DNA from: a virus
Virus record (IMG/VR): IMGVR_UViG_3300044631_000551
Location: 1-64,000 of that record
Length of the DNA: 64,000 nucleotides
Strand: one strand, 5' to 3'
Positions 7,288 through 37,156 of this stretch are shown here, piece after piece. A model generated the notes under the pieces. The model was not told where the DNA came from, searched no databases, and was given only the letters and a program-made list of their open reading frames with translations. Both the position numbers and the translations under genes were made by a program. The number at the start of each line of letters is the position of its first letter. Position 1 is the stretch's first letter.

Positions 7288-8186
7288 TCTTTGTGCTTGT
7301 ATGTTTCTTTCATGTGAGTAAAATACTTATCGATTCGTTCCTGATAGTTGTCGTGATATACACAGACAAATCCAGATTCAGGGTGCGAAAACAAAGCAGC
7401 GAGCTTATTGTAAAGTGTATCCTTGACGCCACAGCGGTCAAGAGCATTGTAAACGTGTTCGAATGTTCCACGACCTTTGCGTTCTTTTAGATCGATAAGA
7501 CCAAGTTTCTTTCCTAAGATAGTAGCTGATAATCCAGTTTCAGAACTCATACAGAAGTATGCTTTTTCGCATTTCTTTAGAAGTGGATACAGAGCCACGT
7601 CATTATTGATACACTTGTCACCCCAACGTTTCATCAGCATGGTCTGCCAAACCTTAGCAGTAATCGGATGCAGTTTAACATATGCGCCATCGGCTACGAG
7701 CTGATCAATTTTTTCCATGTCACACCATCCGCCCTCTTTAGTCAGCAGATTAGTTCCAGGAAGAATTACAAGTTCTTTTACAGGTAGATCGCTTTCTTCG
7801 TCAAGCAAATACTTGTCAGTTAGATTAGCTTTCAGTTTAGCAACAATAGCAAGACCTTCTTCGGTTGGTCCTTTTTTAATCACATTGATCAAATTCTGAA
7901 CAGAAATCGTAGAGTTACATGGCGAAATCATTACAACTTTAGTCAACAAATCTGTATACTTGTAGCCATGAATGCGATCTTTAGGTGATTCGTACGAGAT
8001 ATCGTATTCAATCTTAACACCATTTATAGTCTTAGGAATCAACTTAGAGATGTTTGCTAGTTCGTCGTTTTCATCAGAACGTAGTGCATTTCCAGTTTTC
8101 ATAAAATGTGTAACTGAGTCGCCGAGCCATTCGTTCGACGACATGTACATAAATGGTTTCTTTTTCTTTTTGACTTCTTCTACCAT
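7284..8186 (-). CDS. KpsS/KpsC-like (Capsule_synth) GT-B glycosyltransferase-like protein
   Basis: YVKLHP and LLKKCEKAYFCMSSETGLSATILGKKL resemble the KxHP and LL..ad.V.T..StvG.EAll.GKpV motifs of capsule-synthesis transferases. Confidence 0.55.
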   Translation of the reverse strand: MVEEVKKKKKPFMYMSSNEWLGDSVTHFMKTGNALRSDENDELANISKLIPKTINGVKIEYDISYESPKDRIHGYKYTDLLTKVVMISPCNSTISVQNLINVIKKGPTEEGLAIVAKLKANLTDKYLLDEESDLPVKELVILPGTNLLTKEGGWCDMEKIDQLVADGAYVKLHPITAKVWQTMLMKRWGDKCINNDVALYPLLKKCEKAYFCMSSETGLSATILGKKLGLIDLKERKGRGTFEHVYNALDRCGVKDTLYNKLAALFSHPESGFVCVYHDNYQERIDKYFTHMKETYKHKE

Positions 8187-8200
8187 AACAAAATCCTCGA

Positions 8201-8356
8201 TTATTTTTCTAAATCTTTTACTCGTTTTTTCAACGATTTAATTTCTTTCTCGATATCAATCATTTTCTGTAGAACTACTTCTACGAAAGATTCGAGTTTG
8301 CGATTTACCATATCGACGTTCACTGGAGCGCCATTTTCATCAGTTTGTATATTCAT
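8201..8356 (-). CDS. Small coiled-coil protein (51 aa, MNIQTDENGAPVNVDMVNRKLESFVEVVLQKMIDIEKEIKSLKKRVKDLEK)
   Basis: Not in ORF track; strong AAGGAG RBS; fills the gap between neighbours; AATAAATA upstream at 8378-8385. Confidence 0.75.
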   Translation of the reverse strand: MNIQTDENGAPVNVDMVNRKLESFVEVVLQKMIDIEKEIKSLKKRVKDLEK

Positions 8357-8383
8357 AATATTCTCCTTTTCATATTATATTTA

Positions 8384-11300
8384 TTACGTGCTTCTAGAAG
8401 TTTCAAAGCTGGTTGTTGTATCATATGTGGTTGTAGTAGACTTATTCGTATCGAACGTAGTCGTTTTACTTGTAGCAAAAGTCGTAGTCTTCGACGTATC
8501 AGTATTAAACACAGTGTTGGTTAAGAACACAGTGGATGTTGCAAACGTCGTTGTATATGTTGTATCAAATACGGTAGAAGTTGATTTGCTGGTTTCTTTG
8601 TTGGTATCAATCGTGGTATCACGGCTGGTACTGGTTGCAACAATAGTCGTTGTTTGGAATATAGTAGAAGTTCCAAACGTCGTAGTATATGTAGTCGTCG
8701 TATCAAACACACTAGTTGTTGATTTGCTTGTAGCAGTCAAGAAGTTAGTCGATCTACTTGTACCAATAGTTGTCGCGCGAGTAGTGTTCGTTCCAAATGC
8801 AGTTTCAGTACCAAACGTCGTAGTTGTATTTAAGCCAGTGTCAAAGATAGTATCGTAGGCTGTGGCAGTTGACTTACTGGTTGACGTAGCCTTCGAGGTA
8901 TCAGTAGATTTACTGGTTGACACGGTTGTATCAGTTGCTTTATTAGTATCAAACGTTGTATTAAACGCAGTAGTCGTACCAAAAGCAGTTGATTTAGAAG
9001 TTACAGTTGCTATATTTGTAGACTTAGTTGTATCTGTTGCTTTACTGGTTGATGCAGTCGTGTCAGTTGCTTTGTTCGTAGCAAAGAAGGTCGCATACGT
9101 CGTGGTTGTTCCAAACGTTGTAGTTTTAGAAGTATCAAACGTTGTATCAAATACGGTAGTTGTACCGAACGTTGTAGTTTTAGAAGTATCAAACGTTGTA
9201 TCAAACGTGGTAGTGGTAGCAAAAGAAGTAGTTTTGCTGGTATCAGTTGACTTGCTAGTAGAAACAGTAGTGTCCGTCGACTTGCTTGTGTTAAATGCAG
9301 TCGTGTAGGCAGTCGTTGTTCCAAACGTTGTAGTTCTAGAAGTGTCCGTTGTTTTACTTGTAGACCCAGTTGTATCAGTAGACCTGCTGGTGCTTACGGT
9401 TGTGTCGGTTGCTTTGCTTGTGTTAAAGACTGTGGTGTAAGCTGTAGTGGTATCAAACGTCGTGGTTCTGGAAGTATCAAACGTCGTATTAAACGTTGTA
9501 GTTGTACCGAACGTTGTAGTTTTACTTGTAGCAAACGTAGTATTAAACGTCGTTGTAGTAGCATACACAGTGGTCTTTGACGTATTAAACGTTGTGTTAA
9601 ATGTAGTAGTTGTAGCAAATATCGTCGTGGTTCCACGAGAAGTATCAGTAACTCGGGAAGTAGAACCAGTTGTATCAAACGTCGTATTAAACGTTGTGGT
9701 TGTGCCATACGTTGTAGTACGAGAAGTATCGGTTGCTCTAGAGGTAGAAAGCGTTGTGTCTTTTTCAGCAGTGCTGAGTGTAATTACGACACCTCTAGTT
9801 AAGTTTTTATTTCCCGCATCATTTTGTCCTATACGAACGTTGATATATCCTTGGGCAGATAAAAATGGCATTTCTTGATATTTTACTGCTGTTCTACTGT
9901 TAGTAAATTCGCCTTGTGTTACATCTACACCACCTGCAAATCCTAAAAAGTTTCTTGTTCCTGGCAACGCAGACGCGCCATAAAAACCAAAAACAATAGA
10001 TTGTGAACTGTCAACAGTTACAGCGTTATTTGCTGGTGCCGTGTCTATTGGGTTTGCGGTTGTTCCGACAAAAGAGGTAGTAACACCTGTAATTCTAACA
10101 CCTACGCCACCAGTAATCAATACTAATATTTTATCGTTTTGTGTCGCAGCGTTAATACCAGTAACTGTTGCGCCAATATCACCAGACGCCAGTACCTTAT
10201 AAGAACAGTTAAACGCAGCACGACCTGTACCAGCAGTGTTATTTGCAGTGTTTGCGATATTAGTCCAGTTTGTAGGTAAGACGTTTGTAACAGAAGTTGT
10301 TGTTGAGTTATAACCAAAGTCAAACAAGACAGCAACTTGTCCAACAGCTGCGGTGCCTGGAATTGCAATAGTTGAACCTGTAGATGTGGTACCACTATCA
10401 ACCGAAAATATTGACGTTGCAGTAAATGCTGTAATATACGTCGTATTAAATGTTGTGGTTGTAGCATACGTAGTCGTTCTGCTTGTATCAGTTGCTCTGC
10501 TTGTTGAACCAGTTGTATTAAATGTGGTACTAAATGTCGTTGTAGTACCAAATATCGTCGTTGTTCCACGAGAAGTATCAGTGGCTCGAGAAGTAGAACC
10601 AGTCGTATCGTAGGTTGTAGTCTTGCTTGTATCGGTTGCTTTACTGGTAGAACCAGTTGTATCAAATGTAGTTGTTCTGCTAGTGTCTGTTGTCTTTGAA
10701 GTAGAACCAGTCGTAGCATAAGATGTTAATCTTGAAGTTGCTGTCGCCTTAGAAGTACCTTGCGAAGTTTCAAATGTTGTTGTAGTTGCGTATGACGTAT
10801 TAAACGTGGTCGTCGTAGCAAATATTGTATTAAACGTAGTTGTTGTACCGAACGTCGTTGTACGAGAAGTATCAGTGGTTTTACTTGTACCTTGTGTGGT
10901 ATCAAAATTAGTTGTGGTCGCATACGAAGTATTGAATATCGTAGTCGTAGCAAACACTGTCGATCGGCTTGTGTCAGTAGCTTTGCTCGTGGAACCAGTT
11001 GTATTAAACATCGTTGTTCTGCTAGTGTCAGTGACTTTACTAGTAGAACCAGTTGTATTGAACGTTGTTGTTTTGCTTGTGTCGGTGGTCTTGGTCGTAT
11101 CTTGAGAAGTATCAAACACAGTAGTCGTAGCAAACGTAGTGTTAAACGTCGTTGTTGTAGCAAATGCTGTATCAAATACAGTAGTCGTAGCAAATGTAGT
11201 CGTTATAGTAGTATCGGTAGTTCTAGACGTTCCTTGCGACGTATTAAACACAGTCGTTGTTGCGTACGAAGTATTAAACGTCGTTGTCGTAGCAAATGTA

Positions 11301-11992
11301 GTCGTAGTATCGAATACAGTAGAAGTTGCTCTTGAAGTCGCAAAATTAGTAGTGACTAGAGTGTTCGTACTTCTGGTTGTCTGTGTTGTAATAACTGTAT
11401 CGGTTGTGAACGTCGTAATGTAAGTTGTTTCAAAACTAGTAACAAACGTGGTCGTAGTATCAAATACAGTAGTCGTTGACTTAGAAGTAGCAGTAACATT
11501 AGAAGTCGATGCAGTGGTATCGGTAGTTCTACTAGTATTAGTTAAGAACGCAGTATCTGTATTAAACGTTGTAACAAACGTCGTAGCGAAAACGGTATTA
11601 AACGCAGTAGTTGTTGACTTGCTTGTAGAAGCAGTAGTCAATCTATTTGTGTCGGTCAATCTTGATGTAGCAGTATCAAGATTAGTTAGTGTAGCATAAA
11701 CAGTTGTTTTGCTAGTATCAAACGTCGTGGTTTGACTTGTCTCAAATACCGTAGTTGTAGATTTAGTAGTACCAGTTGCACGCGACGTTTCAAAGACAGT
11801 AGCAACTCCAGCAGAAGCGCCATAGAAGTCAGAAAACTTAATAGTTCCAGATGTAGGAATCGCAGCATTAATCAGTGTGTTAGCCACAAACACACCACCA
11901 CGATAATACTCAGAAATTGAGTGTGGTGCTGTACCGCCAAACTCTAGGGCGATGCTTGATAAACTAATTGTGCCAGAAAACGGCAATGGCAT
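8384..11992 (-). CDS. 1202-aa Thr-rich virion protein: fibre-tip attachment N-terminus, two mirror-complementary Thr arms, central globular domain
   Basis: N-terminal SGTISLSSIALEFGG..SISEYYRGG..PTSGTIKFSDFYG motif, typical of genes following S74-chaperone fibres; TTTF/TSK repeats flank a ~220-aa beta-rich domain. Confidence 0.85.
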   Translation of the reverse strand: MPLPFSGTISLSSIALEFGGTAPHSISEYYRGGVFVANTLINAAIPTSGTIKFSDFYGASAGVATVFETSRATGTTKSTTTVFETSQTTTFDTSKTTVYATLTNLDTATSRLTDTNRLTTASTSKSTTTAFNTVFATTFVTTFNTDTAFLTNTSRTTDTTASTSNVTATSKSTTTVFDTTTTFVTSFETTYITTFTTDTVITTQTTRSTNTLVTTNFATSRATSTVFDTTTTFATTTTFNTSYATTTVFNTSQGTSRTTDTTITTTFATTTVFDTAFATTTTFNTTFATTTVFDTSQDTTKTTDTSKTTTFNTTGSTSKVTDTSRTTMFNTTGSTSKATDTSRSTVFATTTIFNTSYATTTNFDTTQGTSKTTDTSRTTTFGTTTTFNTIFATTTTFNTSYATTTTFETSQGTSKATATSRLTSYATTGSTSKTTDTSRTTTFDTTGSTSKATDTSKTTTYDTTGSTSRATDTSRGTTTIFGTTTTFSTTFNTTGSTSRATDTSRTTTYATTTTFNTTYITAFTATSIFSVDSGTTSTGSTIAIPGTAAVGQVAVLFDFGYNSTTTSVTNVLPTNWTNIANTANNTAGTGRAAFNCSYKVLASGDIGATVTGINAATQNDKILVLITGGVGVRITGVTTSFVGTTANPIDTAPANNAVTVDSSQSIVFGFYGASALPGTRNFLGFAGGVDVTQGEFTNSRTAVKYQEMPFLSAQGYINVRIGQNDAGNKNLTRGVVITLSTAEKDTTLSTSRATDTSRTTTYGTTTTFNTTFDTTGSTSRVTDTSRGTTTIFATTTTFNTTFNTSKTTVYATTTTFNTTFATSKTTTFGTTTTFNTTFDTSRTTTFDTTTAYTTVFNTSKATDTTVSTSRSTDTTGSTSKTTDTSRTTTFGTTTAYTTAFNTSKSTDTTVSTSKSTDTSKTTSFATTTTFDTTFDTSKTTTFGTTTVFDTTFDTSKTTTFGTTTTYATFFATNKATDTTASTSKATDTTKSTNIATVTSKSTAFGTTTAFNTTFDTNKATDTTVSTSKSTDTSKATSTSKSTATAYDTIFDTGLNTTTTFGTETAFGTNTTRATTIGTSRSTNFLTATSKSTTSVFDTTTTYTTTFGTSTIFQTTTIVATSTSRDTTIDTNKETSKSTSTVFDTTYTTTFATSTVFLTNTVFNTDTSKTTTFATSKTTTFDTNKSTTTTYDTTTSFETSRST

Positions 11993-11994
11993 TA

Positions 11995-13659
11995 TTAATC
12001 CTTACTGAGTTGTGCTTTCAACTCATCAATTTGAATCTGTTGTTCTTTAATTGCTTCAATTAAAAGTGGAATTAATCTCTCATATTTAACCGTCATATAT
12101 TTGTTATCAATTGGTGCAGGTGCTACGACTTCTGGCATAATAGCATTTACTTCTTGCGCAGAAACACCGACATGCATTTCTTTTTGATAGCCGAGATCTT
12201 GAGCTGTAATGTTTGGTTCGTAATAGAAACCATTTAATGATTTAACTTTTTCTATCGCGTTTGAAATGTTTGAGTATCTATCTTTTAGTCGGTCGTCTGA
12301 GAAGAATGCTGTAATGTCGCCTGTGGCTGTAATGGCAGTCTGTACAGCAAACGATGAAGTATTGCTATTGCTTACAGTAGACCATATTGCGCGCTCGGCT
12401 CCAGTTGTAGAAGCAACATAAAATACGAAGTTGTCATCAGATTGATGAACTAGCCTTGCTCCATTACCAGCAGTAGGATTATTAAAAACAATTCGTTTAT
12501 CATTAGCGATTGTCAATATATCATTAATTTTTGTATTAGATAGACTTACATTTGATGTATATGTTAATGCAGTTCCGTTGTAACCAAATGTTGATGGTGC
12601 TGTACCAAACTTAATAAACCCCAAGCTAGAGTTTTGTTGACCTTTTAGACCTACAGTATCAGCAAGGTTGACATCACCTAACCAAGCATCATCACCAATT
12701 CTATAGTTTGTTCCGTTTCCGTTGTTTGCTGCAGTGTAATAATCTGCAGATACAATACCAGATACGTTAGCAAACCCAGTGACGGTTGTATTGCCAGCGG
12801 CAAGCGTACCTGTTACGTTAGCAAAACCAGTTATAGTCGTGTTACTAAGTGTAGAACTTGTCGCTAATACTACACTTCCAGTACCAGTGACACTTGAGAA
12901 ACCAACAAACTCTGCATTCCAACCAGCTGCACCGTTACCAGCCGTAAGATCAATGGAAGTACATAATGCAACCGTGCCTGGAAGAACTGTAATTACAGTA
13001 GCAGCGTTGGCTGCTCTTACTTCAACGTTGCCGGTCGAATTGTTGACAATTAGGAATCCTTGACCTAATGTCATTGTTTGTGGAGCAGGTAACGACAATA
13101 CTTGAGTCGTCGTACCCGTAAAGAACTGCATGTAGTTACTTGATGAAGTTAGTACAGTTGTACCAGCCGCAGTTGCAGTCGTACTGTAACCGTGCTTAAT
13201 ATTGTTAAATATTGGATTAGTGGTATTTAATGTTCCTGAAATAGTAACATTTGATGTAATCGATGTATTAGTACTGGTAATATGAGTATTAGTACCAGAT
13301 AGAGTCGCGTTGCTAGTTATCGTAACCACACCACCTAAGTTAGTCGTACCTGTTACTGATAGAGCGTGAGCAGGAGTTGTGTTGCCTATACCAACGCGAT
13401 TATTAGTACCGTCAACAAATAGAACACCGCTGTCAAAGTTTGCATTACCACTAGTTTGTGTAAATGCGGTTCCGACAACCATACTTGCAAGGTTCGCGCC
13501 AATTTCAAATGTCGCTGAACCATTGGAAGACAACAGTTTCCTGTCGGTAAGGTTGATTGCTAATTCACCTGCGGCGATGTACGAGGTGTTAGATACGTTG
13601 CTTACGTTGGGTAGTAAGCCAGTGGTAGTTGTTCGTTTAATTTGAAATCTATTTGGCAT
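11995..13659 (-). CDS. Tail fibre with C-terminal peptidase S74 intramolecular chaperone
   Basis: FSDDRLKD...GVSAQEV..IMPEVV...VKYERLIPLLIEAIKEQ; N-terminal FQIKR...GELAINLTD docking-type motif. Confidence 0.88.
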   Translation of the reverse strand: MPNRFQIKRTTTTGLLPNVSNVSNTSYIAAGELAINLTDRKLLSSNGSATFEIGANLASMVVGTAFTQTSGNANFDSGVLFVDGTNNRVGIGNTTPAHALSVTGTTNLGGVVTITSNATLSGTNTHITSTNTSITSNVTISGTLNTTNPIFNNIKHGYSTTATAAGTTVLTSSSNYMQFFTGTTTQVLSLPAPQTMTLGQGFLIVNNSTGNVEVRAANAATVITVLPGTVALCTSIDLTAGNGAAGWNAEFVGFSSVTGTGSVVLATSSTLSNTTITGFANVTGTLAAGNTTVTGFANVSGIVSADYYTAANNGNGTNYRIGDDAWLGDVNLADTVGLKGQQNSSLGFIKFGTAPSTFGYNGTALTYTSNVSLSNTKINDILTIANDKRIVFNNPTAGNGARLVHQSDDNFVFYVASTTGAERAIWSTVSNSNTSSFAVQTAITATGDITAFFSDDRLKDRYSNISNAIEKVKSLNGFYYEPNITAQDLGYQKEMHVGVSAQEVNAIMPEVVAPAPIDNKYMTVKYERLIPLLIEAIKEQQIQIDELKAQLSKD

Positions 13660-17506: not shown

Positions 17507-18376
17507 TTATTGAATTTCGCTAGTATATTGTTCCGTATCGCCATCAACAATTGTCGTCACAATAGTTCCAACAATGGTATTAAATACAGTATCGGTAGAT
17601 CTAGAAGTTGATGCAGTCGTAGATTTTGATATCGATGCACCAGTAGCAAACACCGTATCATATTTAGTGGTTGTACCATAGAACGTATTAAATGACGTTG
17701 TTGTTGCGGTCGCTTTAGAAGTAGACTTAGAGGTTGATTTACTGGTATCATAAACCGAACCAAATACAGTAGTTGTTGCAAAAGAAGTATTTTTGGAAGT
17801 ATCAGTCGATCTAGAAGTATCAGTTGTTCTAGAAGTTTCATTTCCTGTTAATGTTAATTTGCTAGTTTCTCTTGTGGTTCCAACTGCTATATCACTACCT
17901 GATTCTTTATCAAAAATAAATGTAAATGTATCTGTTAGATAAGTCGTAGTGGTATTTACACCACCAGTAATATAGGTTGTAGTCGTACCATATACAGTAG
18001 TCGTCGCATATGTTGTTAATATTGTTGTATCTGTACTGCGAGCTGTACCAGTTAAAGTGCTTCTACTTACTTCTTTAGTAAGAAAAACTGGTTCGCCAGA
18101 TACTGTAGTTGTTATTGTTGTATTATATGTTGTAGTCGTTGAAACTTCATTAGAAGTTCCGAATACAGTATTATAAACAGTGTCATAAACTGTTGTAGTA
18201 TTTGTAGATTTGGATGTTAGCTGGCTTGTATCAGTTAATTTTTGCGTTTCAAAATTAGTATCATATCCAGTAACATAAAGAGTTACAAACGTAGTGTTAA
18301 ATACTGTTGATGTTGAACGCGAAGTTTGTCCTGTCGTTTGTCTAACAATATAAGAATTTAACAAAAACCCGCCCAT
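17507..18376 (-). CDS. 289-aa Thr-rich protein with nested mirror-complementary segments
   Basis: Same TTTF/TSK repeat alphabet as the 1202-aa protein; follows directly after the 575-aa fibre. Confidence 0.8.
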   Translation of the reverse strand: MGGFLLNSYIVRQTTGQTSRSTSTVFNTTFVTLYVTGYDTNFETQKLTDTSQLTSKSTNTTTVYDTVYNTVFGTSNEVSTTTTYNTTITTTVSGEPVFLTKEVSRSTLTGTARSTDTTILTTYATTTVYGTTTTYITGGVNTTTTYLTDTFTFIFDKESGSDIAVGTTRETSKLTLTGNETSRTTDTSRSTDTSKNTSFATTTVFGSVYDTSKSTSKSTSKATATTTSFNTFYGTTTKYDTVFATGASISKSTTASTSRSTDTVFNTIVGTIVTTIVDGDTEQYTSEIQ

Positions 18377-27461: not shown

Positions 27462-29183
27462 TTAGAATCTTATTACTAATTTAACTTGTTCTTTATTTGA
27501 AGTAGAACGAGAAACTTCTTGAATATTTTGAATGTATAAAACATCACCAGAATAGATAGCTAAGTTTGCAGCAGTGTTTCCACTAGAAGTGATTCGTTGC
27601 GCGCCATTAGCACCTTGTAGAACTTCACCAGACTGGAACGTACCATTGACGCCAGTTAGCAACATGACTGATGAGTTAGCAAATGCGTATCTACCAGAAG
27701 CGGTAGAAATACTACCTGTTACCACTTCACCATTTGCATAAGTTCCTGTTCCAGAACCTGTTATATTTATAGTGCATAATTGATTAAATGTGTTTGCAGC
27801 ATATAAAGTTCCGTTAGAATATGTCGGATTTTTTAACAAACCAACAGTTCTATAAGTCACGTCTGCGTTAAAAGTATTGGCTCCAACGTACTCGTCAAAC
27901 AAACAATGTACGCCAAGTGCATCACAATATAATTCGTCATAAACATCACTACCGTGTCCGCCATCTGGAGAGATAATTGCTCTCAATTCACCGCCAGAGC
28001 CAAGGTTGGTTCCAGCAGTTACAGTGACAGTAGCATCTTTATAGCCAGTACCATATTGTGCCATGTTTACGCGAGTAATTGCGCCAGTTGTTGAATTCAT
28101 TACAGCATATGCAGAAGCATTACTACCAGTTCTAGAAGTAATTGTTAACAATGGACCAATAGAATATGTACAGGTATTTGATAAGAATCCAGCTGGGAAC
28201 GAGTCAGTAATTGTAATACCATATGCTGTATTAGATGTACCAATCTTACGAACGAATGTATTTCCGCTAGTATTTGTGACAGTAATCGCACTATCTCTGT
28301 AATAGTTCGAAGTTGTATTAGCTGTGTTTGCAATAATTACTACATTGTTATTGCCAGTCGTTGTAATCGCACCAGTATGATTCGGATAATCTGCACCAGA
28401 AGCTTCAACAATAATATGAAATATTCCGCCATCTACTGCTGCGTTAGCAACGATCGCGTCTGGTGTTACAGGGATATATTCGTTTGTTGTAAACTTTAGA
28501 TTATCAGATTGAGCGACATTATACATGTACATCCACTTGTAATTGTCTGCTGTTTGAAATGGCGTTCCAATGTAGGTCGCGCTCTTTGTTGGTTTTATAG
28601 TAGAATTTGCGCCACCATTGTTTGAAATACATTTGAACACGTCACGTGTATCAGTAATAACAAAGAAGTCAGTATCTTTTAATTCAGCCTGATCGTCATA
28701 TTGAGTGTAAACTGTGCTAGTGGTCCATGTGTATTTTGGAACCATTCGTTTGAAGTTGGCTTTTTTACCAAACATCATTTCGTTCCAGATATCATAGAAG
28801 GAATCAGTTTCTGACTCTACTTCAGCTGAAACATCGCTCGTTGGATATTCAGATTGTTTACCAACAAACACATAAAAGTTATTTTCGTTTTCGAAAGAAA
28901 CGTTGACTCTTAGACCAGTACCACTCCCGCCAGTCGCGTAGATGGCAGAGTTAGGAACATTATTGTTATAAACACCTTTGGTGACTAGGGTAGCTGCTGT
29001 AACATTGGCGGTGGCATTGACAGTGACTGTAAACGTAGTTCCACCGAATAAGCTAACTGTTTCTGCGTTGACATAACTGCCACCAGCTGCGCTAATAGCG
29101 AGAGCAGAAACTTTTTGATTATCAACAGAATTGATAAACTCATCTATTGTATTTCTTTTGAATTTAGATAATAGCTTACTCAT
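27462..29183 (-). CDS. gp8: Baseplate wedge subunit
   Basis: WT..TVY.QYDD, VFKCISN, TADNYKWMYMY, ISPDGGHG, YSGDVLYIQN..EQVKLVIRF. Confidence 0.88.
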   Translation of the reverse strand: MSKLLSKFKRNTIDEFINSVDNQKVSALAISAAGGSYVNAETVSLFGGTTFTVTVNATANVTAATLVTKGVYNNNVPNSAIYATGGSGTGLRVNVSFENENNFYVFVGKQSEYPTSDVSAEVESETDSFYDIWNEMMFGKKANFKRMVPKYTWTTSTVYTQYDDQAELKDTDFFVITDTRDVFKCISNNGGANSTIKPTKSATYIGTPFQTADNYKWMYMYNVAQSDNLKFTTNEYIPVTPDAIVANAAVDGGIFHIIVEASGADYPNHTGAITTTGNNNVVIIANTANTTSNYYRDSAITVTNTSGNTFVRKIGTSNTAYGITITDSFPAGFLSNTCTYSIGPLLTITSRTGSNASAYAVMNSTTGAITRVNMAQYGTGYKDATVTVTAGTNLGSGGELRAIISPDGGHGSDVYDELYCDALGVHCLFDEYVGANTFNADVTYRTVGLLKNPTYSNGTLYAANTFNQLCTINITGSGTGTYANGEVVTGSISTASGRYAFANSSVMLLTGVNGTFQSGEVLQGANGAQRITSSGNTAANLAIYSGDVLYIQNIQEVSRSTSNKEQVKLVIRF

Positions 29184-29192
29184 TTATGTACC

Positions 29193-32100
29193 TTATGGGT
29201 TTGTGTTTAGCACTGTGTCAATGACAGTGTCAAAAACGGTATCTGTATCAACAACTGTTACATAAGCAGTGGCTGACGAAGTATTTATAGCGGTTGATGT
29301 AGACTTCTGAGTATTAAACTTAGTAGAAATCGCTGTTGTATATTGCGTAGCATTCAACACAGTTCCAGTCAAATTAAACAGCGTATCTGTATAGAACTTC
29401 GTATCAAAAGTTGTATTTTTAGTTGTTGATGTTTCTTTGTTGGTAGAAATTGTAGTATTTAAAGCTGTATCATAAGTGGTTACAATAGTTGTTAGGCTCT
29501 TAGTCTGAGTTGCGTAAGTCGTTGATTTACTGGTATCAGTATTATACGCTGTTGTTATTGTCGTATCATAAACTGACGATGTCGATTTACTTGTGGCAGT
29601 AGACTTAGTTGTATCAGTATTGAATACTGTAGAAGTAGAAGCAACAGTTGCGCTGATCTTGGTGGTATCAGTATCAAATACCGTGCTGGTAGACTTGGTC
29701 GTAGCGGTATCAATAGCAGTATCTGTATTAAATACAGTCGAAGTCGACTTCGAAGTCGCAGTCGCTATATTTGTAGCGATCTTAGTATCAGTCGACTTGC
29801 TTGTTGATGTCGAATATGCAGTAGCAGTATCGTAAATAGAAATTGTTTCATATACTGTCGAGAAAGTTGAATCAGTTTGAACAATCGTTGCTGTATTTAT
29901 GGTAGTATCAGTAGACTTCGATGTTCCTTTCGTAGTTTCGAACGTAGTTCCTTTACTTGTTGTAGTTAAGAATACTGTATCAAATAATGACTGAGTATTG
30001 TAAACTGTAACATATGATGTTAATGTATTGAATACTGTGCTGGTTAGCGCAGAAGTTGAAGTAGACTTGCTCGTTGATCCAGTTGTGCTAATGGCGGTGT
30101 CGCGCGCAGTATTTGTTTGGAACAATGTAACTGTATCGAATATAGTTGATGTTGCAAACGTTGTATTAAACGCAGTCGTAGTATCAAACACAGAAGAAGT
30201 TGATTTACTTGTTCCAGTTAGCGCAGAAGTATCAAATGTCGAAGCCGTGGCGAACACTGTATTGAATGCGGTTGTGGTATCAAACACAGTAGCATAAGTT
30301 GTTAGCGTCGCATAGATTGTAGCGAAACCAGTCGTAGTCGCGTATGCGGTAGTACGAGAAGTGGCAGTCGCTTTGTTAGTATCATATGCAGTTTCAAACG
30401 CAGTCGAAGTATCGAACACGCTAGTTGTTGCCTTAGATGTGCTAACTGTGGTATCGGTTGATTTGCTGGTTCCAGTAGACTTAGAAGTTGAAGCAGCTGT
30501 TTCTGTCGCTTTAGAAGTAGAAGTCGCTTTAGAAGTAGAAACCACAGTATCAAACGTTGTATCATACGTGGTCACATAAGTCGTAGTTGTATCAAACAAC
30601 GTCGTGGTAGATCTAGAAGTACCAATTGTGGTATCTGTTGATTTGCTGGTAGAAGTCGACTTAGAAGTCGAAGCAGATGTTCCAGTTAAATTCGAAGTAG
30701 CAGTAGACTTAGATGTAGAATTTGTAGTGTCAAACGTAGTATTATATGCAGTTACAAATGCTGTCGTTGTATTAAACACAGTCGTAGTCGACTTAGAAGT
30801 ACTCCTACCCGTTTCTATTGTAACCTCTTCTTTAGTTTCTGCATCGATAAAAGTGGTATCATATGCAGTAACATAAATCGTAGTTGTAGATTTAGAAGTA
30901 CTCGTTGCTTTAGAAGTCGTCGCACTTGTTGCTGCAGATGTATTAAACGTAGTGTTAAACGTTGTTGTCGTGTTAAACGCGGTAGTTGTATTAAACAACG
31001 TTAAGTATGCAGTTGTAGTGTTAAACACAGTCGTAGTGGCATACGCAGTATCATATAAAGTCGAAGTAGACTTAGAAGTCCCTGTCGTCTTAGAAGTTAA
31101 TTTAGACGTAGAACCTGTAGTATTAAACGTTGTATCAAACGTTGTTGTAGTATTAAACGTTGTTGTGGTGTTAAATACAGTCAAGAAAGTTGTAGTCGTA
31201 TCATATGCAGTTGTTGTTGCGTATGCTGTATTGAACGTCGTCGTCGTGCTTCTCGAAGTACTGGTAAATCTATTAGTACCAATTTGTGTTAGATACGTCG
31301 TTGTTGTATTAAACGCAGTAGAGATCGTGGTGTCAGTAGATTTTGACGTTTCTTTGGTTGTCTCTGTGGCTTTACTTGTTTGAGCACTGGTGCTTGTAGA
31401 CTTAGTGGTCGAACCAGTAGTATTAGTTTCAATTGTTGTACCATACACAGTAGTTGTATTAAACAACGTGGTCGTTGATTTTGAAGTCGCCGTTGCTTTT
31501 GAAGTGGCGCCAGTCGTATCAGTTGACTTACTTGTTGCTGTTAAAGCAGAAGTTTGTGTTGAGAAAACAGTTTGATATGCTGTATCAAACGTAGTATTAT
31601 ATGTTGTAGAAGTAAACGCACCGCTACCAGTAGTTGTTAGTTTACTTGTTGCCGTTGAAGCAGAAGTTTCTTTACTTGTAGAAGTATCGCGTTCGGTAAT
31701 CTTTGAAGTATTAGTGCTAAAGAACGTATCAAAAGCAGTATCATATTTCGTAGTGTAAGAAGTCGTCGTAGCATACGCTGTCGAGGTATCGTAAACCGAG
31801 TTAGTTAGACGCTTAGTAGAACGATTTGTGTCTGTATAAACCAACGTTGCAGTCGCAATAGTTGTGTCGGTATTAAACACAGTAGTGGTCGCAATGGCAG
31901 TATCAAATATGGTCTGAGTATTAAACACAGAAGTTGTAGATTTACTGGTAGCAGTTACATATGCTGTCGTTGTGTTAAATGTACTTGTTGTAGATTTATT
32001 AGTCGATGTAGCATATGCAGTTATAGTGTCAAAAACTGATGACGTAGATTTATTTGTTGCAGTGGCAAATGTCGTTGTTGTATCGTATGCAGTCGTGGTC

Positions 32101-35100
32101 GTTTTACCAGTACCATATGCAGTAGATTTTGACGTTTGAGTTGCAAACTTAGTATCAATCGTTGTAGAAGTATACAACGCAGTCGCTGTTAAAAAATTAG
32201 TGGCAAATGCTGAATCGGTGTACTTAGCAGTTCTATAATTTGTATCAGACAAATATTCAGTTGTAGTGTTTGTAGATTTTGAAGTACCTGTTTCCGTTGA
32301 AACTGCAGTTGAATATGCTGTACCAAGCGCAGTTTGCTTAAATGTATCTGTCGACTTAGAAGTATCTTTATTAGTTGCATAAGAAGTTGCAACTGTTGTC
32401 AATACTTCGCCAGTTGTAAAATATGTCTGAACATCTGTTGGACGCGACGTCGCAACCTTAGTAATGATATCAGTTTGTTTATTTGTCAGCGTAGTTACAT
32501 CTGTGTCTAAAGTCGTGTCTTTGAACTTGGTATTGTAAAAAGTTGCAAACTCAGTTTGGAACGAAGTATCATAAATCGTGTTGATAGTAGTCAACAGATT
32601 TGTCATAAATGTCGTGCCAGTAAACTTCTGCGTGTCGACTGTGGTATCTTTTGAAGTAGCATACGCAGTTGTAGTCGCAATCTTTGTTGCGTACGCTGTT
32701 AAGAATACAGTTGTTGTTACGCCAGCAGTTCGAGTGGCTCTGGTCGTCGCATATGCAGTTTGAACTATTGTACCAGCACCACTGTCTGTAGAGATCTTAG
32801 TATCAAACGTGGTGGTCGTATTTGTAAAGTAGCTGGTAACAGTAGCAGTTACTGGTAGAGTATCAATTGTTATGGCTGTATCTACTAACGTATTTGTGTC
32901 ATACGTTGTTGTTGTGGACACACTAGTATCAAATTTTGTAGTACGAGTTGTATCAATCGTAGTATCAGTATTGTAATTGGTAGTGGTATTAATTGTTGTA
33001 TTGACTAGAGTTCCGCCACTGGTATTAAAAATTGTATCGTATGTGGTAGAATAACTTGAGTTGATAGCTGTGCTTCTAGACGTGGCAAAAGCAGAAGTTT
33101 CTGATACTGTAACTTCTTTTGAACAAGAGTAAGACCAGACTCCAGGAGGAGCGTCATTAAGGAAAATACAATCATCAAATGTAAATCCTTTCGCAGCAGC
33201 ATCCGCTATCGCAGCATTTTGATTGACAAATCCAGTTTCACTAGCGGAAGTTGTAAATGTTGTATCTGCAGTTATACTTGTATCAAACACAGTTGTTGTG
33301 AAGAAGTTAGTTACAACAGATGTTTGGAAGTTAGTAGCAGCAACACCGCTTAGAGTACCGTAGCTGGTAGCAGTTGTTTTAGATGTGCCAGTCGCATACG
33401 CAGTAGCAAATTTAGTGCTTCTACTAGTATCATATACTGTAGCTGTACTCTTAGTCGTAGCTGTATCTCTAGCTTCTTGGCCAGCATACGTTGTGCTTGT
33501 ATAAACAATTGTTCCTACAGCAGTATTAATTGCAGTGGCAGTAGTAATTAACGTGCTAAATGCAGTTGTTGTAGAGGTCGAAATTGCTGTTTCGAATGTG
33601 GTATCGATAGCAGTTTCGCGCTTTGTCAAGAACGAAGTTCCATATGCAGATGTGGTTAGATACTCCGTCGCAATTGTAGTCGCGCCAGCAGTTTCTGTAA
33701 ATCTGCTTGTTGTAACACCAGTAGAAGTCGTAAGTGTTGTAGAAGTAGAAGTTAGATACTGAGTTTCTAGATAATCAATTAGAGCTTCTAGGGTGGTTCC
33801 ACGAGAAACAGGAACAGATTGAATTACAGTTCTACCAAATCTTTCCATACCAGCTGGATGCCACAAATCACGAAGAATGCTAGAATACTTGTTAAACGCA
33901 GTAACAGCTTGAACTTCGTATGAATATTCTTGGTAATAATAATTGTCGTGAATATACTTGTCAGAGTTTAAGAAACCGCGAGTAGATTTAAAGAATCCTT
34001 CGCCCTTACCCTGACCAAGATAATCAATTGTACCTGTTGCAACATGCGAAGCATTCGTTACACTTGTTAGCGAAACAGTCGTATTGTTAGTGTAGCCAAC
34101 ACCAGAATTATAGATGGATACAGTAGAAACAGCACCAGGACCACTACCAGAAACGCCAGCAATATTTGCATTGAAACCGAGGAATCCGCCAGCTCCATCA
34201 GACAGACGAAGCGGATAAATTAAATTATCGACGATTGCTACGTTTACGTTTGCTTGATAACCACCACCAGGATTAATATTTGTTAATGTAGCAATTGTAC
34301 CATAAGTGTAGGTGTTTAATGTAAAAATACCATTAAACGCAGTCAAATATGTTGCAGATGTATTTGATGAAAATGCAGTATAAGCTGGGGCTGCAGCATT
34401 AATTTGAATACTAAGCGCGTTAGTAATTGGCGTAGAAGTCAAGTCAATTGTGCTTGTATTGCTTAATGATCCAACATCAAAAGACGCAACGCTGGTTGGC
34501 GTTTCGCCTAGTGATGGTGTAACTGTTTCAGAAGCAGTTAATGTAAAACCTGTACCACCATTTCTAATGTCAAAAGTTACAACACCTTGTAGTCTTTGCA
34601 GACCAGTTACAATGGCTTGACCATTTACACCATCACCGCCAACAACGTTGACGAGTTCACCAAGAGAAAAACCAGGAGAGCTACCGAGAACTTGAATGCT
34701 AGAAAGTGATCCGTAAACTTTTGGACTATCTGTAACTTCGATGCCCAAGTCGTCTATTACATCTAAATTGATAATTTCTTCATCTGCCGCAAATGTTCCG
34801 ACAATGTCAGTAATATACAAAATATCGTGGCGCTGATTACCAGTTACAAATACTTTATAATCATCTACGAAAGCTGTCGCCCCAGAAATGCGACCAGTAA
34901 TCGTTTTACCGATATATGATGCAATGTTTGCATTATATTCTAGCTCCAAGTATCTTGGAACAAGCCATTGTGAATCAGATGCACGGATTACGTCTGTTCC
35001 AGGAGAATAGACGTTAATGTCTTCGTTGAATAAAACGCGGAATAATAATTCTAAACCACGTTCTGTGCCTTTAGAAGAGTATAATTCTTTGATGTGTTTT

Positions 35101-35363
35101 TGTAGAAGACGTTTATCTGCAGCAACATCAAGCGGAATACCATGCATGTATTTTTTACGAAAATAATCTACGAACTCATCAAGAGTAGTATCAATATCGC
35201 GCCAAGTTGGTAGTCGACGAGCGTCGTAGATTACTTGATTAGTTTGTTCTAACCACTCAAAATATGCTCTAACAAATGCAACGAAAGTTGGTCCTTCTTC
35301 TCGGTAGATAGAAGGAAACTGACTTTCAATGAGTGGAGAAATTAACTTCTCAAGGTCTTTCAT
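29193..35363 (-). CDS. gp7: Baseplate wedge initiator (gp7-like) with ~1500-aa Thr-rich C-terminal extension
   Basis: IESQFP..REEGP.FVAFVRAYFEWLE, LYSSKGT, HDNYYYQEYSY..HPAGM..FG; lies between gp6 and gp8. Confidence 0.82.
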   Translation of the reverse strand: MKDLEKLISPLIESQFPSIYREEGPTFVAFVRAYFEWLEQTNQVIYDARRLPTWRDIDTTLDEFVDYFRKKYMHGIPLDVAADKRLLQKHIKELYSSKGTERGLELLFRVLFNEDINVYSPGTDVIRASDSQWLVPRYLELEYNANIASYIGKTITGRISGATAFVDDYKVFVTGNQRHDILYITDIVGTFAADEEIINLDVIDDLGIEVTDSPKVYGSLSSIQVLGSSPGFSLGELVNVVGGDGVNGQAIVTGLQRLQGVVTFDIRNGGTGFTLTASETVTPSLGETPTSVASFDVGSLSNTSTIDLTSTPITNALSIQINAAAPAYTAFSSNTSATYLTAFNGIFTLNTYTYGTIATLTNINPGGGYQANVNVAIVDNLIYPLRLSDGAGGFLGFNANIAGVSGSGPGAVSTVSIYNSGVGYTNNTTVSLTSVTNASHVATGTIDYLGQGKGEGFFKSTRGFLNSDKYIHDNYYYQEYSYEVQAVTAFNKYSSILRDLWHPAGMERFGRTVIQSVPVSRGTTLEALIDYLETQYLTSTSTTLTTSTGVTTSRFTETAGATTIATEYLTTSAYGTSFLTKRETAIDTTFETAISTSTTTAFSTLITTATAINTAVGTIVYTSTTYAGQEARDTATTKSTATVYDTSRSTKFATAYATGTSKTTATSYGTLSGVAATNFQTSVVTNFFTTTVFDTSITADTTFTTSASETGFVNQNAAIADAAAKGFTFDDCIFLNDAPPGVWSYSCSKEVTVSETSAFATSRSTAINSSYSTTYDTIFNTSGGTLVNTTINTTTNYNTDTTIDTTRTTKFDTSVSTTTTYDTNTLVDTAITIDTLPVTATVTSYFTNTTTTFDTKISTDSGAGTIVQTAYATTRATRTAGVTTTVFLTAYATKIATTTAYATSKDTTVDTQKFTGTTFMTNLLTTINTIYDTSFQTEFATFYNTKFKDTTLDTDVTTLTNKQTDIITKVATSRPTDVQTYFTTGEVLTTVATSYATNKDTSKSTDTFKQTALGTAYSTAVSTETGTSKSTNTTTEYLSDTNYRTAKYTDSAFATNFLTATALYTSTTIDTKFATQTSKSTAYGTGKTTTTAYDTTTTFATATNKSTSSVFDTITAYATSTNKSTTSTFNTTTAYVTATSKSTTSVFNTQTIFDTAIATTTVFNTDTTIATATLVYTDTNRSTKRLTNSVYDTSTAYATTTSYTTKYDTAFDTFFSTNTSKITERDTSTSKETSASTATSKLTTTGSGAFTSTTYNTTFDTAYQTVFSTQTSALTATSKSTDTTGATSKATATSKSTTTLFNTTTVYGTTIETNTTGSTTKSTSTSAQTSKATETTKETSKSTDTTISTAFNTTTTYLTQIGTNRFTSTSRSTTTTFNTAYATTTAYDTTTTFLTVFNTTTTFNTTTTFDTTFNTTGSTSKLTSKTTGTSKSTSTLYDTAYATTTVFNTTTAYLTLFNTTTAFNTTTTFNTTFNTSAATSATTSKATSTSKSTTTIYVTAYDTTFIDAETKEEVTIETGRSTSKSTTTVFNTTTAFVTAYNTTFDTTNSTSKSTATSNLTGTSASTSKSTSTSKSTDTTIGTSRSTTTLFDTTTTYVTTYDTTFDTVVSTSKATSTSKATETAASTSKSTGTSKSTDTTVSTSKATTSVFDTSTAFETAYDTNKATATSRTTAYATTTGFATIYATLTTYATVFDTTTAFNTVFATASTFDTSALTGTSKSTSSVFDTTTAFNTTFATSTIFDTVTLFQTNTARDTAISTTGSTSKSTSTSALTSTVFNTLTSYVTVYNTQSLFDTVFLTTTSKGTTFETTKGTSKSTDTTINTATIVQTDSTFSTVYETISIYDTATAYSTSTSKSTDTKIATNIATATSKSTSTVFNTDTAIDTATTKSTSTVFDTDTTKISATVASTSTVFNTDTTKSTATSKSTSSVYDTTITTAYNTDTSKSTTYATQTKSLTTIVTTYDTALNTTISTNKETSTTKNTTFDTKFYTDTLFNLTGTVLNATQYTTAISTKFNTQKSTSTAINTSSATAYVTVVDTDTVFDTVIDTVLNTNP

Positions 35364-37156
35364 TAGATGCGAATTCCAGTTACAACGACAGAAATATCTT
35401 CGTTATCAATTAGTAATATTTTATTTGTTAGCGTATCAATATCAGCATTTTCAGTTCTTGCGTATATTTTAATACTGTCAGTATCATAAGAATCAACAAT
35501 TAAATTTGTAATTTTAATTTCGCCTGTTTCATAATTTACTGTACCGACATTATTATTTAGAACTGTAGTATTACCATTATTTATGGTGTAAATATAAAGA
35601 GTTCCAACACCATTGTCATTAATATAAGCAGTATATTTGTCATAAACAAATGCGGTTGAAGATACGATTGGTTCATGGCCAACTGGTAAAACATATCTTA
35701 TATCTTCATCATGTAATCGATTTTCAAAACTCCAGTTAGAAGAAAAGCTAACAAGAGGAGTAGGAGTTATGCGCTTAGAAATACGAACTTGTGTATCGTT
35801 TGAAATGATTGATACATCAGCAGCATCAATAGCAGCAGACAGTTTAGAGAACCTTAAATCAGAGCCAAAGTCTGATAGATAACTTGTATTAAAAGATGTG
35901 ATGGCAGTAATAACATTTGACACCAATTGAGATGGTGTTTTTGTTGTGGCGCTTATGTTGTACTTGACGCGAGAAATAATATCAAGATACAAATACTCAG
36001 GATCAACTATTAATGGTTCAATCGATACTGGTGTCTTATCTTCTAAGAAAGTCAAGATGCTTTGTTTTATGCTAGAAGAAAGCATTTCTCCGCCAACTGG
36101 TTTAGCAGAGATAATAACTTTTCCATATAATTTTGGAACTGACTCTTCGCCACCGTAGGCGATTACAGTTTCAATCGAAGGGTAGTTTGCCTTGATTAAA
36201 GAAATAAAGTCTTCAGCAGTAACAGCTCTGTTCTGCGCTGTAAATCCGCGAATCGCATTATAACGAATTGATTCAGCATCTTCCGCTTGCGAGCCACCAG
36301 CTGAAGTTTCGGTAGTAGATAACAAAAATGTATTTGAAGAAAAACCATCAGCAGAACTGATAGAAGTAAACGTACCGCATCCGTTACCATCTTCGCCTGC
36401 AGTTTGTCTGTATGTAACTAAAACAATATTACCTGCTGTCAATTTCTTACTGGAAACACCGTTACCAAACGAAACAGCATACTTAAATTCGTCAGCACCC
36501 TGAACAAAAAATACTGTGCTATTTGCATTCAAACCAAACAAGTCAGTGGCTTTGCTCCACGCCACTGCTGTGGTATTTGTTGATGAGTTTCTTATTTCAA
36601 CAGTAATAGAAGAAGTATCTAATGTATTAGAAGACAAAGTAAATGTTTGGTTGTTCGCAGAGTTCGCAACAAATGCTTCTGTTTTAATGCTGCCTTCGTG
36701 GAAAGAAACATTAGAAACGGTGTAGTTGTTTGAGCGATACAAAACAATAGTTTCGTCTGTTGAAAATGTGTATGTTTCATTAGCATCATTAGTACCTCTG
36801 ATGCTGTAATACTGTGGCAGAGTAATTGTGTCTGGAGTATTTGCTGGCTGCGCAGTAACAGTGACATCAATTGTTGAAGCTGCGCGCGATCTTGGCGTAT
36901 AGTTTAATTCTTTAGCGTGAGATACAATTGAGTCGCGAAGTTGCGCGGTATCCAAAAACATCTCACTGCCAATCATGTTGAGATACATGGCGTTGTGATA
37001 GGTATTGTATGCTAATAAGTCCAACAGAACTGATAAGTTAGAACCTTCAAAATCATAGTCCCTAAACTCAGTTTGCTGACTTAAATATGTCTTTAGACTT
37101 TCTTTGTATGCAGCAAAGTCTAATTCAGTGGTGGTGAGAAATCCTTGATTCGACAT
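35363..37156 (-). CDS. gp6: Baseplate wedge subunit
   Basis: LDF..YK.SLK.YL..Q.EFRDYDFEGSNLSVLLDLLAYNT, AQNRAVTAEDF, YGGEE. Confidence 0.95.
   Translation of the reverse strand: MSNQGFLTTTELDFAAYKESLKTYLSQQTEFRDYDFEGSNLSVLLDLLAYNTYHNAMYLNMIGSEMFLDTAQLRDSIVSHAKELNYTPRSRAASTIDVTVTAQPANTPDTITLPQYYSIRGTNDANETYTFSTDETIVLYRSNNYTVSNVSFHEGSIKTEAFVANSANNQTFTLSSNTLDTSSITVEIRNSSTNTTAVAWSKATDLFGLNANSTVFFVQGADEFKYAVSFGNGVSSKKLTAGNIVLVTYRQTAGEDGNGCGTFTSISSADGFSSNTFLLSTTETSAGGSQAEDAESIRYNAIRGFTAQNRAVTAEDFISLIKANYPSIETVIAYGGEESVPKLYGKVIISAKPVGGEMLSSSIKQSILTFLEDKTPVSIEPLIVDPEYLYLDIISRVKYNISATTKTPSQLVSNVITAITSFNTSYLSDFGSDLRFSKLSAAIDAADVSIISNDTQVRISKRITPTPLVSFSSNWSFENRLHDEDIRYVLPVGHEPIVSSTAFVYDKYTAYINDNGVGTLYIYTINNGNTTVLNNNVGTVNYETGEIKITNLIVDSYDTDSIKIYARTENADIDTLTNKILLIDNEDISVVVTGIRI

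Follow-up and report, generated by a model that had tools for sequence, protein, structure and literature searches.

A gp7-type wedge gene with a threonine-rich extension

We analyzed a stretch of viral DNA of 64,000 nucleotides (nt), positions 1 to 64,000 of IMG/VR record IMGVR_UViG_3300044631_000551, to which we refer as the window. Our subject is a gene on its minus strand (29193..35363, stop codon included), whose open reading frame (ORF) translates into a protein of 2056 amino acids (aa) that resembles the baseplate wedge protein gp7 of phage T4 and carries a long threonine-rich extension. The wedge domain takes up residues 1 to ~530 (33774..35363, minus strand) and the extension residues 551-2056 (29196..33713, minus strand). 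An earlier note on this DNA, written from the letters alone, had proposed that the extension is complementary to itself in mirror fashion about a turn containing the motif DAETKE. This antiparallel complementarity is real and reaches beyond the span that was first described, and it is the basis of our argument that the chain folds back on itself.

Several matches bear on the identity of the N-terminal domain. The Pfam family Baseplate_wedge (PF23786) scored 33.9 bits against a cut-off of 27, in a match confined to residues 468-509, and PHROG 17744 ('baseplate wedge subunit') matched residues 2-276 and further stretches with an E value of 2.9e-140. T4 gp7 was the top match in the Protein Data Bank (PDB), residues 645-759 of 5hx2_A aligning weakly (E 8.5e-4) with residues 8-119 (112 residues) of our protein, and PHROG 964, whose profile length is 1030, matched the 2056-aa protein at E 9.1e-5. 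The wedge domain is also 42% identical (E 1e-107) to a protein of Stenotrophomonas phage DLP6 that is annotated as 'baseplate wedge subunit protein' (AMQ65900.1). In Rhizobium phage RHph_I1_18 the homologue is 528 aa long and has no extension, and we therefore take residues 1 to ~530 to be a complete wedge protein and the remainder to be an addition.

The surrounding genes form a baseplate module with the order gp6-like, gp7-like, wedge subunit. The upstream neighbor (35363..37156, minus strand) is a gp6-like wedge protein matching PF21379 and PF21871 (gp6 helical domain and C-terminal domain III), and the downstream neighbor (27462..29183, minus strand) is a wedge subunit of PHROG 438, after which comes an 1827-aa protein with a DUF4815 match in Pfam. 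The same order is found in DLP6, for which a table in the published description names genes gp6, gp7 and gp8 (PMC5349666), the PHROG 438 protein occupying the place of the gene called gp8. The assignment as baseplate gp7 made in the earlier note is thus in agreement with PF23786, with PHROG 17744, with the weak T4 gp7 match and with gene order.

At least 93% of the sampled words of the stretch were present in each of 20 lake-water metagenome runs, and no RNA dataset was among the listed runs that contain it. A contig from one run (X20), which carried no flag as a potential source of the record, covers 29193-33126 with 12 differences and 0 gaps, and three further lake-water runs tile the gene; the sequence of the 2056-aa gene is therefore real and not an assembly artifact. 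The best reading of its source is a T4-like lake-water phage carrying a gp7-type wedge subunit gene.

Mirror pairing along the extension

The extension amounts to 1506 aa, close to the ~1500 aa estimated at first, and is made up of 35.4% Thr, 11.9% Ser (47% Ser+Thr) and 0.3% Pro. It matched no PHROG family and, apart from the wedge match given above, no Pfam family. GC skew climbs to 0.23 across the Thr region.

We scanned the protein along antidiagonals (i+j constant) with a score set beforehand, in which an aromatic residue opposite a basic one counts +2, like opposite like -2 and a key residue opposite Thr -1. Two ungapped antidiagonals stood out: i+j=3021 scored 60 over 247 pairs (1255-1501 with 1520-1766) and i+j=3019 scored 43 over 213 pairs (1029-1241 with 1778-1990). 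In 20 residue shuffles the peak score was 8-12.

The same scan bears on the idea that the extension is a parallel beta-solenoid or a trimeric fiber, like ordinary phage fibers or TxT antifreeze proteins. Richness in Thr, period-2 strands and a site on the baseplate, where trimeric fibers are usual, would all suit such a fold. However, the best parallel diagonal scored only 16, coil length is not constant (the only arrays given by Tandem Repeats Finder are one of 180 nt with 2 copies and two of 18 nt), neither Pfam nor PHROGs finds a fiber or chaperone domain in the protein, and T4 gp7 is present as a single copy per wedge. We find a solenoid or trimer barely credible, and return to a self-paired antiparallel chain.

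The complementarity that such a chain requires extends to individual residues. Within the first block of the pairing (residues 1251-1770, window 30054-31613) there are 51 pairs that hold an aromatic residue, and these are spaced by 4 residues 24 times and by 6 residues 24 times; the partner is Lys in 24 pairs, Arg in 6, Ala in 8, Ile in 5, Gly in 4, Val in 2 and Asn in 2, and is never Thr or another aromatic. These figures bear out the ~50 complementary key pairs, mirrored over ~30060-31600, that had been seen in the sequence before. All but one of the 81 F/Y/W/K/R residues in the 253-pair block share one parity, and beta-strands are recognized by just such an uninterrupted period of 2. When 471 pairs were tallied, Phe or Tyr was the partner of 46 of 52 Lys and of 9 of 10 Arg, Ser was the partner of 17 of 34 Val, and 132 pairs were Thr:Thr. 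The two large blocks have 221 pairs on their key face, of which we counted 124 as Thr:Thr, 51 as aromatic:basic and 1 as aromatic:aromatic, with 0 basic:basic and 0 key:Thr pairs.

When the partner arm was fully permuted, the number of aromatic:basic pairs fell from the observed 51 to a mean of 9.6 (maximum 19). Permutation restricted to the 85 key positions, which preserves the spacing, gave a mean of 24.9 and a maximum of 37, and 0 of 5000 permutations reached 51. Since neither control attains the observed number, spacing and residue identities must both be complementary. Shuffling the first block in pieces of 2-20 residues gave 13-23 aromatic:basic pairs compared with 30 observed; pieces of 60 residues can regain 30, as expected with five pieces only and internal 60-aa repeats.

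We found no DNA inverted repeat that would explain the mirror, the 4.6 kb holding a single one of 26 nt at 77%. Nor could a DNA palindrome have produced the Thr:Thr pairs, since no Thr codon yields another Thr codon when it is reverse-complemented. The earlier note had also spoken of the same mirror code, and a pairing matrix learnt solely from another Thr-rich protein of this contig, one of 1202 aa, does recover both gp7 antidiagonals, at 165 and 98 bits. In our view the period of 2, the antiparallel complementarity and the short turn that separates the arms are well-supported pointers to a two-stranded beta-ribbon.

Anatomy of the predicted hairpin

With a log-odds matrix (learnt in part from this hairpin) and non-crossing selection of stems, the main hairpin comprises 472 pairs between residues 1022-1503 and 1518-2041, arranged in three ungapped blocks (253+188+31). 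Block 1 pairs 1251-1503 with 1518-1770 (210 bits), block 2 pairs 1061-1248 with 1771-1958 (142 bits), and block 3 pairs 1022-1052 with 2011-2041 (26 bits) on i+j=3063. A two-residue step lies at 1249-1250. Extending i+j=3019 toward the C-terminus gave a negative score, and the base of the stem pairs at i+j=3063 instead. In window coordinates, all on the minus strand, the N-side arm found by the antidiagonal scans (residues 1022-1503) occupies 30855..32300 and the C-side arm (residues 1518-2041) 29241..30812, the latter including an unpaired joint of 52 residues (1959-2010; 29334-29489).

Between the arms lies the tip (residues 1504-1517; 30813..30854, minus strand), whose center of symmetry falls between T1510 and K1511. 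The motif FIDAETKEEVTI at residues 1505-1516 maps to window positions 30816-30851, where ~30825-30850 had been given previously, and the loop, of at most 14 residues centered on DAETKE, is indeed the bare turn that had been proposed.

Orthologue length changes within the hairpin, described below, are confined to its inner stem and tip (residues 1411-1609; 30537..31133, minus strand). Repeat analyses located a tandem duplication of 60 residues (180 nt) in the C-side arm (30379..30738, minus strand), and opposite it, at the mirror position given by i+j=3021, the N-side arm contains a repeat spaced by 180 nt (30940..31231, minus strand). The direct repeats at these mirrored positions are 71-75% identical. 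It seems that the stem was lengthened through equal duplications on both arms.

Closer to the wedge domain, a second and shorter hairpin is probable, with moderate support from the sequence. It would pair residues 621-673 with 786-838 (32850..33503, minus strand) around a loop that holds an island with two Cys (~713-760; 33084-33227). Its stem reaches 28.6 bits, whereas 40 shuffles gave no more than 17.2; the value nevertheless lies within the 18-34-bit background of long homologues, and the stem recurs at 26 bits in two orthologues, L010 and L012. Other stems proposed for the proximal part (551-1021) are marginal at 13-19 bits, and a gapped hairpin alignment of residues 540-1040 with the matrix from the 1202-aa protein could not be placed above shuffled sequence (21.2 as compared with up to 18.8-20.5). 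Of the further or branched stems that had been expected in the rest of the extension, one is thus found, whereas most of that rest belongs to the main hairpin.

Conservation and length variation in close relatives

Close orthologues from uncultured viruses in IMG/VR are longer than the protein under study: 2432 aa in L003 (IMGVR_UViG_3300005805_000604), 2259 aa in L004-L006 and 2399 aa in L010 and L012. Their N-terminal domains are 96% (L003), 90% (L004) and 83% (L010) identical to ours by tblastn, or 95%, 91% and 84% when aligned to the 2056-aa protein. The outer stem (1022-1410 plus 1610-2041, 821 residues) contains 0 insertions or deletions (indels) and is 87% (L003), 91% (L004) and 86% (L010) identical, that is, as conserved as the globular wedge domain. 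The inner stem and tip (1411-1609), by comparison, are 61-65% identical and carry 171-375 extra residues in the orthologues, all hairpin indels falling between residues 1412 and 1604 (P0001 numbering).

The inserted residues are distributed over the two arms as follows: 136 per arm in L010; 148 per arm, with another 79 at the tip, in L003; and 75 and 66 on the arms, with another 30 at the tip, in L004. The orthologues' own ungapped antidiagonals continue across the insertions (L004-L006, 342 pairs; L010 and L012, 396 pairs), and stem pairs mapped by homology score 118-135 bits per orthologue, with one antidiagonal per block. Insertions that mirror each other in this way argue further against a parallel solenoid.

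These comparisons also bear on the possibility that the extension is disordered, perhaps an O-glycosylated, mucin-like Ser/Thr brush, and that the mirror is a by-product of repeat evolution. The combined Ser and Thr content is what one would expect of such a brush, and structure predictors see no fold. Against this, a stem of 821 residues without an indel and with 86-91% identity across three orthologues is not what a disordered linker would look like; the period of 2 is strict and partners are specific to position; there is no DNA inverted repeat, and direct repeats are limited to two 180-nt pairs; and two ORFs proposed as glycosyltransferases (6412-7287 and 7284-8186, minus strand) matched no Pfam family at E<=0.001. 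We consider a mucin-like brush very unlikely, and a folded, self-paired stem remains the reading we prefer.

The tip motif of our protein recurs, as F-x-D-G/A..E-V-F/T-x-E, in L010 and occurs twice in L003, where both copies (..TAF-x-DG-x-QEVFEPTSQ..) lie within a 'loop' of 159 residues (1638-1796). This suggests that the L003 tip may be forked, with two turns.

Shorter forms also exist. The metagenome protein P0006 and L013 (997-1308 aa), together with sequences like L013, stand at 69% identity; they retain the proximal region and the C-terminal tail, but with a stem that we estimate by eye at ~30 pairs. In this lineage stem length therefore ranges from ~30 to ~610 pairs (the latter a summed estimate for L010), and the arms are always matched. 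In P0006 (1308 aa), a run of seven Pro within ~1000-1308 is followed by a C-terminal domain with repeated S-x-D-G-x-T-W, and the tail of the extension can evidently bear a further domain. We presume a resemblance of these repeats to the BNR/Asp-box repeats of propellers, for which Pfam gave no match. L008 (IMGVR_UViG_3300008120_003957), which is 83% identical, stops at residue 743, inside the two-Cys island and well within its contig; truncation of the allele, a frameshift or faulty assembly could each account for this.

A cultured phage and other proteins with the pairing alphabet

The gp7 protein of DLP6 (KU682439.2; AMQ65900.1, 1288 aa) has, in addition to the homologous wedge domain, a Thr-rich extension with a mirror hairpin of its own, and the gene stands in the same order: gp6-like, gp7, wedge subunit and VrlC/DUF4815. 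The DLP6 hairpin consists of 262 ungapped pairs (706-967 with 982-1243) and scores 166.7 bits, compared with at most 18.4 in 30 shuffles. It differs from ours in using Arg where ours has mostly Lys, in having a stem about half as long, and in being preceded by an extra, non-repeat and probably globular insert (~560-700), for which no Pfam family was found. A word search of the main text of the DLP6 paper (PMC5349666) returned neither 'threonine' nor 'fibre' nor 'whisker'.

Among the matches listed from metagenomes there were 120 homologues of 1130-2526 aa. Twelve of these score 104-172 bits, and in each of the twelve Thr makes up at least 27% of the extension. A further five, at ~21% Thr, reach 30-36 bits, and two others that are Thr-rich reach 20 and 30 bits. 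The ~100 with ~10% Thr, at 18-34 bits, serve as the background. In an alignment of the DLP6 group (13 sequences) 331 aromatic:basic cells are in register, as against 2-172 at registers shifted by 1-6, and 8 pair columns show both orientations, as against 0-3 in the shifted controls. The alignment is not fully secure, and we take these counts as support and not as proof.

The contig (84,438 bp) contains 102 ORFs that are 100 aa or longer, and three of them stand out by mirror score: the 1202-aa protein (382 bits), gp7 (210 bits) and a 289-aa protein (51 bits); none of the remaining ORFs exceeds 30.3, and their median is 15.2. Opposite the Thr-rich genes, codon bias has given rise to long plus-strand ORFs (30952-31383 and 8298-9878), whose mirror scores (24-29 bits) are artifacts. 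The Thr-rich 1202-aa protein (8384-11992, minus strand) shares the pairing alphabet of gp7 and has a stem of similar length, 457 ungapped pairs (67-523 with 744-1200), or 462 with the learnt matrix. In contrast to the bare turn of gp7 it carries a globular tip domain of ~214-220 residues, it has no wedge domain, and its sole PHROG match is to a family of unknown function. We searched five related records for its tip domain without a match, and no orthologue was found in the L004 contig; in two of those records the DNA downstream of gp7 holds only Thr-rich ORFs of 528 and 552 aa.

The 289-aa protein (17507-18376, minus strand) has 32% Thr and scores 51.2 bits for 5-79 paired with 206-280; it matched no Pfam or PHROG family. 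In L042 a Thr-rich ORF lies downstream of gp7 at a distance similar to that of the 289-aa gene. Beside the gene for the 1202-aa protein, a 554-aa protein (11995-13659, minus strand) has a Peptidase_S74 intramolecular chaperone domain at residues 454-512, from which we judge it to be an ordinary self-cleaving fiber or spike next to unusual ones.

Structure prediction, searches and points against a ribbon

Several considerations weigh against a ribbon: (i) AlphaFold2, run without an alignment, gave a mean confidence measure (pLDDT) of 38.4 and strands that were not mirrored for residues 1380-1641, and a pLDDT of 37.7 and only a 4+4-residue hairpin at the tip for residues 1461-1560; (ii) a two-stranded ribbon of 472 pairs without a core has no solved precedent, and its stability as a monomer is assumed; (iii) the 52-residue joint has no significant internal stem (best 9 bits), which makes for an irregular stem base; (iv) the later log-odds matrix was learnt in part from the gp7 hairpin, so that its score there is circular, and the independent evidence for pairing consists of the fixed score, the matrix from the 1202-aa protein only, the DLP6 hairpin and the permutation controls; and (v) in the three close orthologues 18, 24 and 22 pairs had changes in both partners, compared with 8.3, 15.5 and 13.1 expected, a result that is no better than at registers shifted by 1-6 (11-29). 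With regard to the last point, we regard the double-change test as uninformative, since the changes are concentrated toward the tip and similar counts arise at shifted registers.

The sole part of the AlphaFold2 models above noise was the tip hairpin (strands 1503-1506 and 1513-1516, pLDDT 61-65). It falls exactly at the turn, and so bears on whether the arms might pair between chains, with neighboring gp7 subunits or with other Thr-rich virion proteins, to give a net or collar in place of six free hairpins. An antiparallel homodimer would need the same mirror symmetry within its sequence, and the two further proteins of the contig that share the pairing alphabet could serve as partners for pairing of this kind. 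On the other hand, apart from the predicted hairpin, the turn is short and its motif recurs in L010 and L003, a single dominant antidiagonal is centered on it, and a dimer would hold its wedge domains ~160 nm apart, which fits a baseplate poorly. Pairing between chains strikes us as quite unlikely, and pairing within one chain as the better explanation of the turn.

Searches with the hairpin returned little. A tblastn search of 50,697 phage records with residues 1251-1769, run with low-complexity filtering, and a megablast search with the whole gene gave no match; phmmer against 1.84 billion representatives gave one match (E 6.5e-5, 126 aa); and the best match among PDB sequences had an E value of 1.5, as expected by chance. 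The ESM Atlas returned three unannotated viral clusters (score 0.91, recognition 722), which we treat as leads only. Our literature searches found no description of such a fiber, and we know of no experimental structure for any member of this mirror-ribbon group.

Proposed fold and function

We favor the possibility, and consider it probable from the sequence, that the gp7 extension is a single-chain, fold-back, two-stranded beta-ribbon on the baseplate wedge which may reach toward the host. The chain would leave the ~530-residue wedge domain, extend for ~480 residues, turn tightly at DAETKE and return antiparallel, forming one intramolecular ribbon of 472 pairs whose length, at 3.3-3.4 Å per residue, would be ~160 nm if straight. 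T4 gp7 is found six times per baseplate, once in each wedge, and by analogy one ribbon would be expected on each of six wedges.

The key face of the ribbon would be a stripe of Thr:Thr pairs, interrupted every 4 or 6 residues, in no periodic order, by an aromatic residue opposite Lys or Arg or, less often, opposite Ala, Gly, Ile or Val. The aromatic ring may pack on the aliphatic part of Lys or Arg, or on the small or aliphatic residue facing it, and on the other face small, polar residues would prevail, Ser being paired with Val, Asn, Asp or Ala. Aromatic-rich blocks of one arm would oppose Lys-rich blocks of the other, with alternating orientation. Together with the irregular spacing, this alternation could act as a bar code that fixes one register; such a code would disfavor slipped or intermolecular pairing, and the turn at the tip would nucleate zipping.

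We lean, modestly, toward the broader proposal that a side-chain code (Thr:Thr, aromatic:Lys/Arg, Ser:Val/Asn/Asp), combined with 4/6 spacing, sets a unique register and so defines a new class of fibrous proteins, monomeric ribbons that are tuned from ~10 to ~200 nm by matched insertions near the tip and follow a stem-loop logic like that of nucleic acids.

As for function, our tentative suggestion is that each wedge bears a thin appendage of tunable length that would make the first contact with the host envelope or with its layer of polysaccharide, the distal stalk serving as the variable surface. Our reasoning for favoring a role in reaching the host is that variation in length and sequence is confined to the distal third and that related gp7 extensions carry extra non-repeat domains elsewhere. 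The stalk itself may be the functional surface, which fits the restriction of hypervariability to the tip-proximal third.

The main functional alternative is that the hairpin forms but runs alongside or around the tail or baseplate, or packs together with the five other copies, and serves as a strut, a strap or a length gauge. The near-equal stems of gp7 (472 pairs) and of the 1202-aa protein (457-462) could reflect a shared distance, and the outer stem is conserved like a structural domain. Stems of ~30 to ~610 pairs in close relatives are, however, hard to reconcile with a fixed distance, and the hypervariable part is distal, as it is in the host-range determinants of fibers. We therefore think a strut unlikely and continue to favor an appendage that reaches outward.

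Relation to known systems and significance

T4 gp7 consists of globular domains and is not known to have a Thr-rich extension. Our protein resembles it (PDB 5hx2, 5iv5) in a top-ranked if weak similarity and in adjoining gp6, and differs in that T4 gp7 has 1032 aa and the similarity spans only ~110 residues. The wedge domain is of the ordinary gp7 type, whereas the ribbon, if the inferred fold is correct, would be a fiber architecture outside the known kinds.

Trimeric phage tail fibers, such as the T4 gp37 needle, are parallel intertwined homotrimers; they are long, thin, rich in beta-structure and attached to the baseplate, and their distal parts are variable. The gp7 ribbon would differ in being a single self-paired antiparallel chain with a residue-by-residue code and no fiber domain. 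Within the main text of an atlas of tail-fiber structures (PMC12143355) the words 'hairpin', 'ribbon', 'threonine' and 'two-stranded' have 0 occurrences.

Short beta-structures are akin to the proposed ribbon in their physics, and helical arms in their topology. There is precedent for beta-sheets that are stable without a hydrophobic core in the single-layer sheets of Borrelia OspA, including engineered hairpin repeats, and in designed cation-pi beta-hairpins, which have cross-strand aromatic:Lys contacts and residues of high beta-propensity. These have a few to tens of residues per strand as compared with ~480 in the gp7 ribbon, and to our knowledge they have no natural register code and no role as fibers. 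The arms of SMC and Rad50, which are ~50 nm long, fold back as antiparallel coiled coils with an element at the tip and matched arm lengths. They are a topological analogue only, being built from alpha-helical heptads, whereas the gp7 arms would be period-2 beta-strands and would reach an estimated ~200 nm in the longest orthologues.

If the fold is true, it would add to viral fibers an architecture of one chain and two strands, with no core and a readable register code. It would also supply natural rules for programming the register of beta-sheets, a hard problem in protein design, in the form of an addressable beta-zipper. For annotation the case carries a warning, namely that low-complexity masking blinds sequence searches and structure predictors to conserved regions such as this one. 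A cultured phage, DLP6, carries a member, so the idea is directly testable. With regard to the phages themselves, a matched-arm ribbon of this kind would give them a new way to vary the reach of a baseplate appendage.

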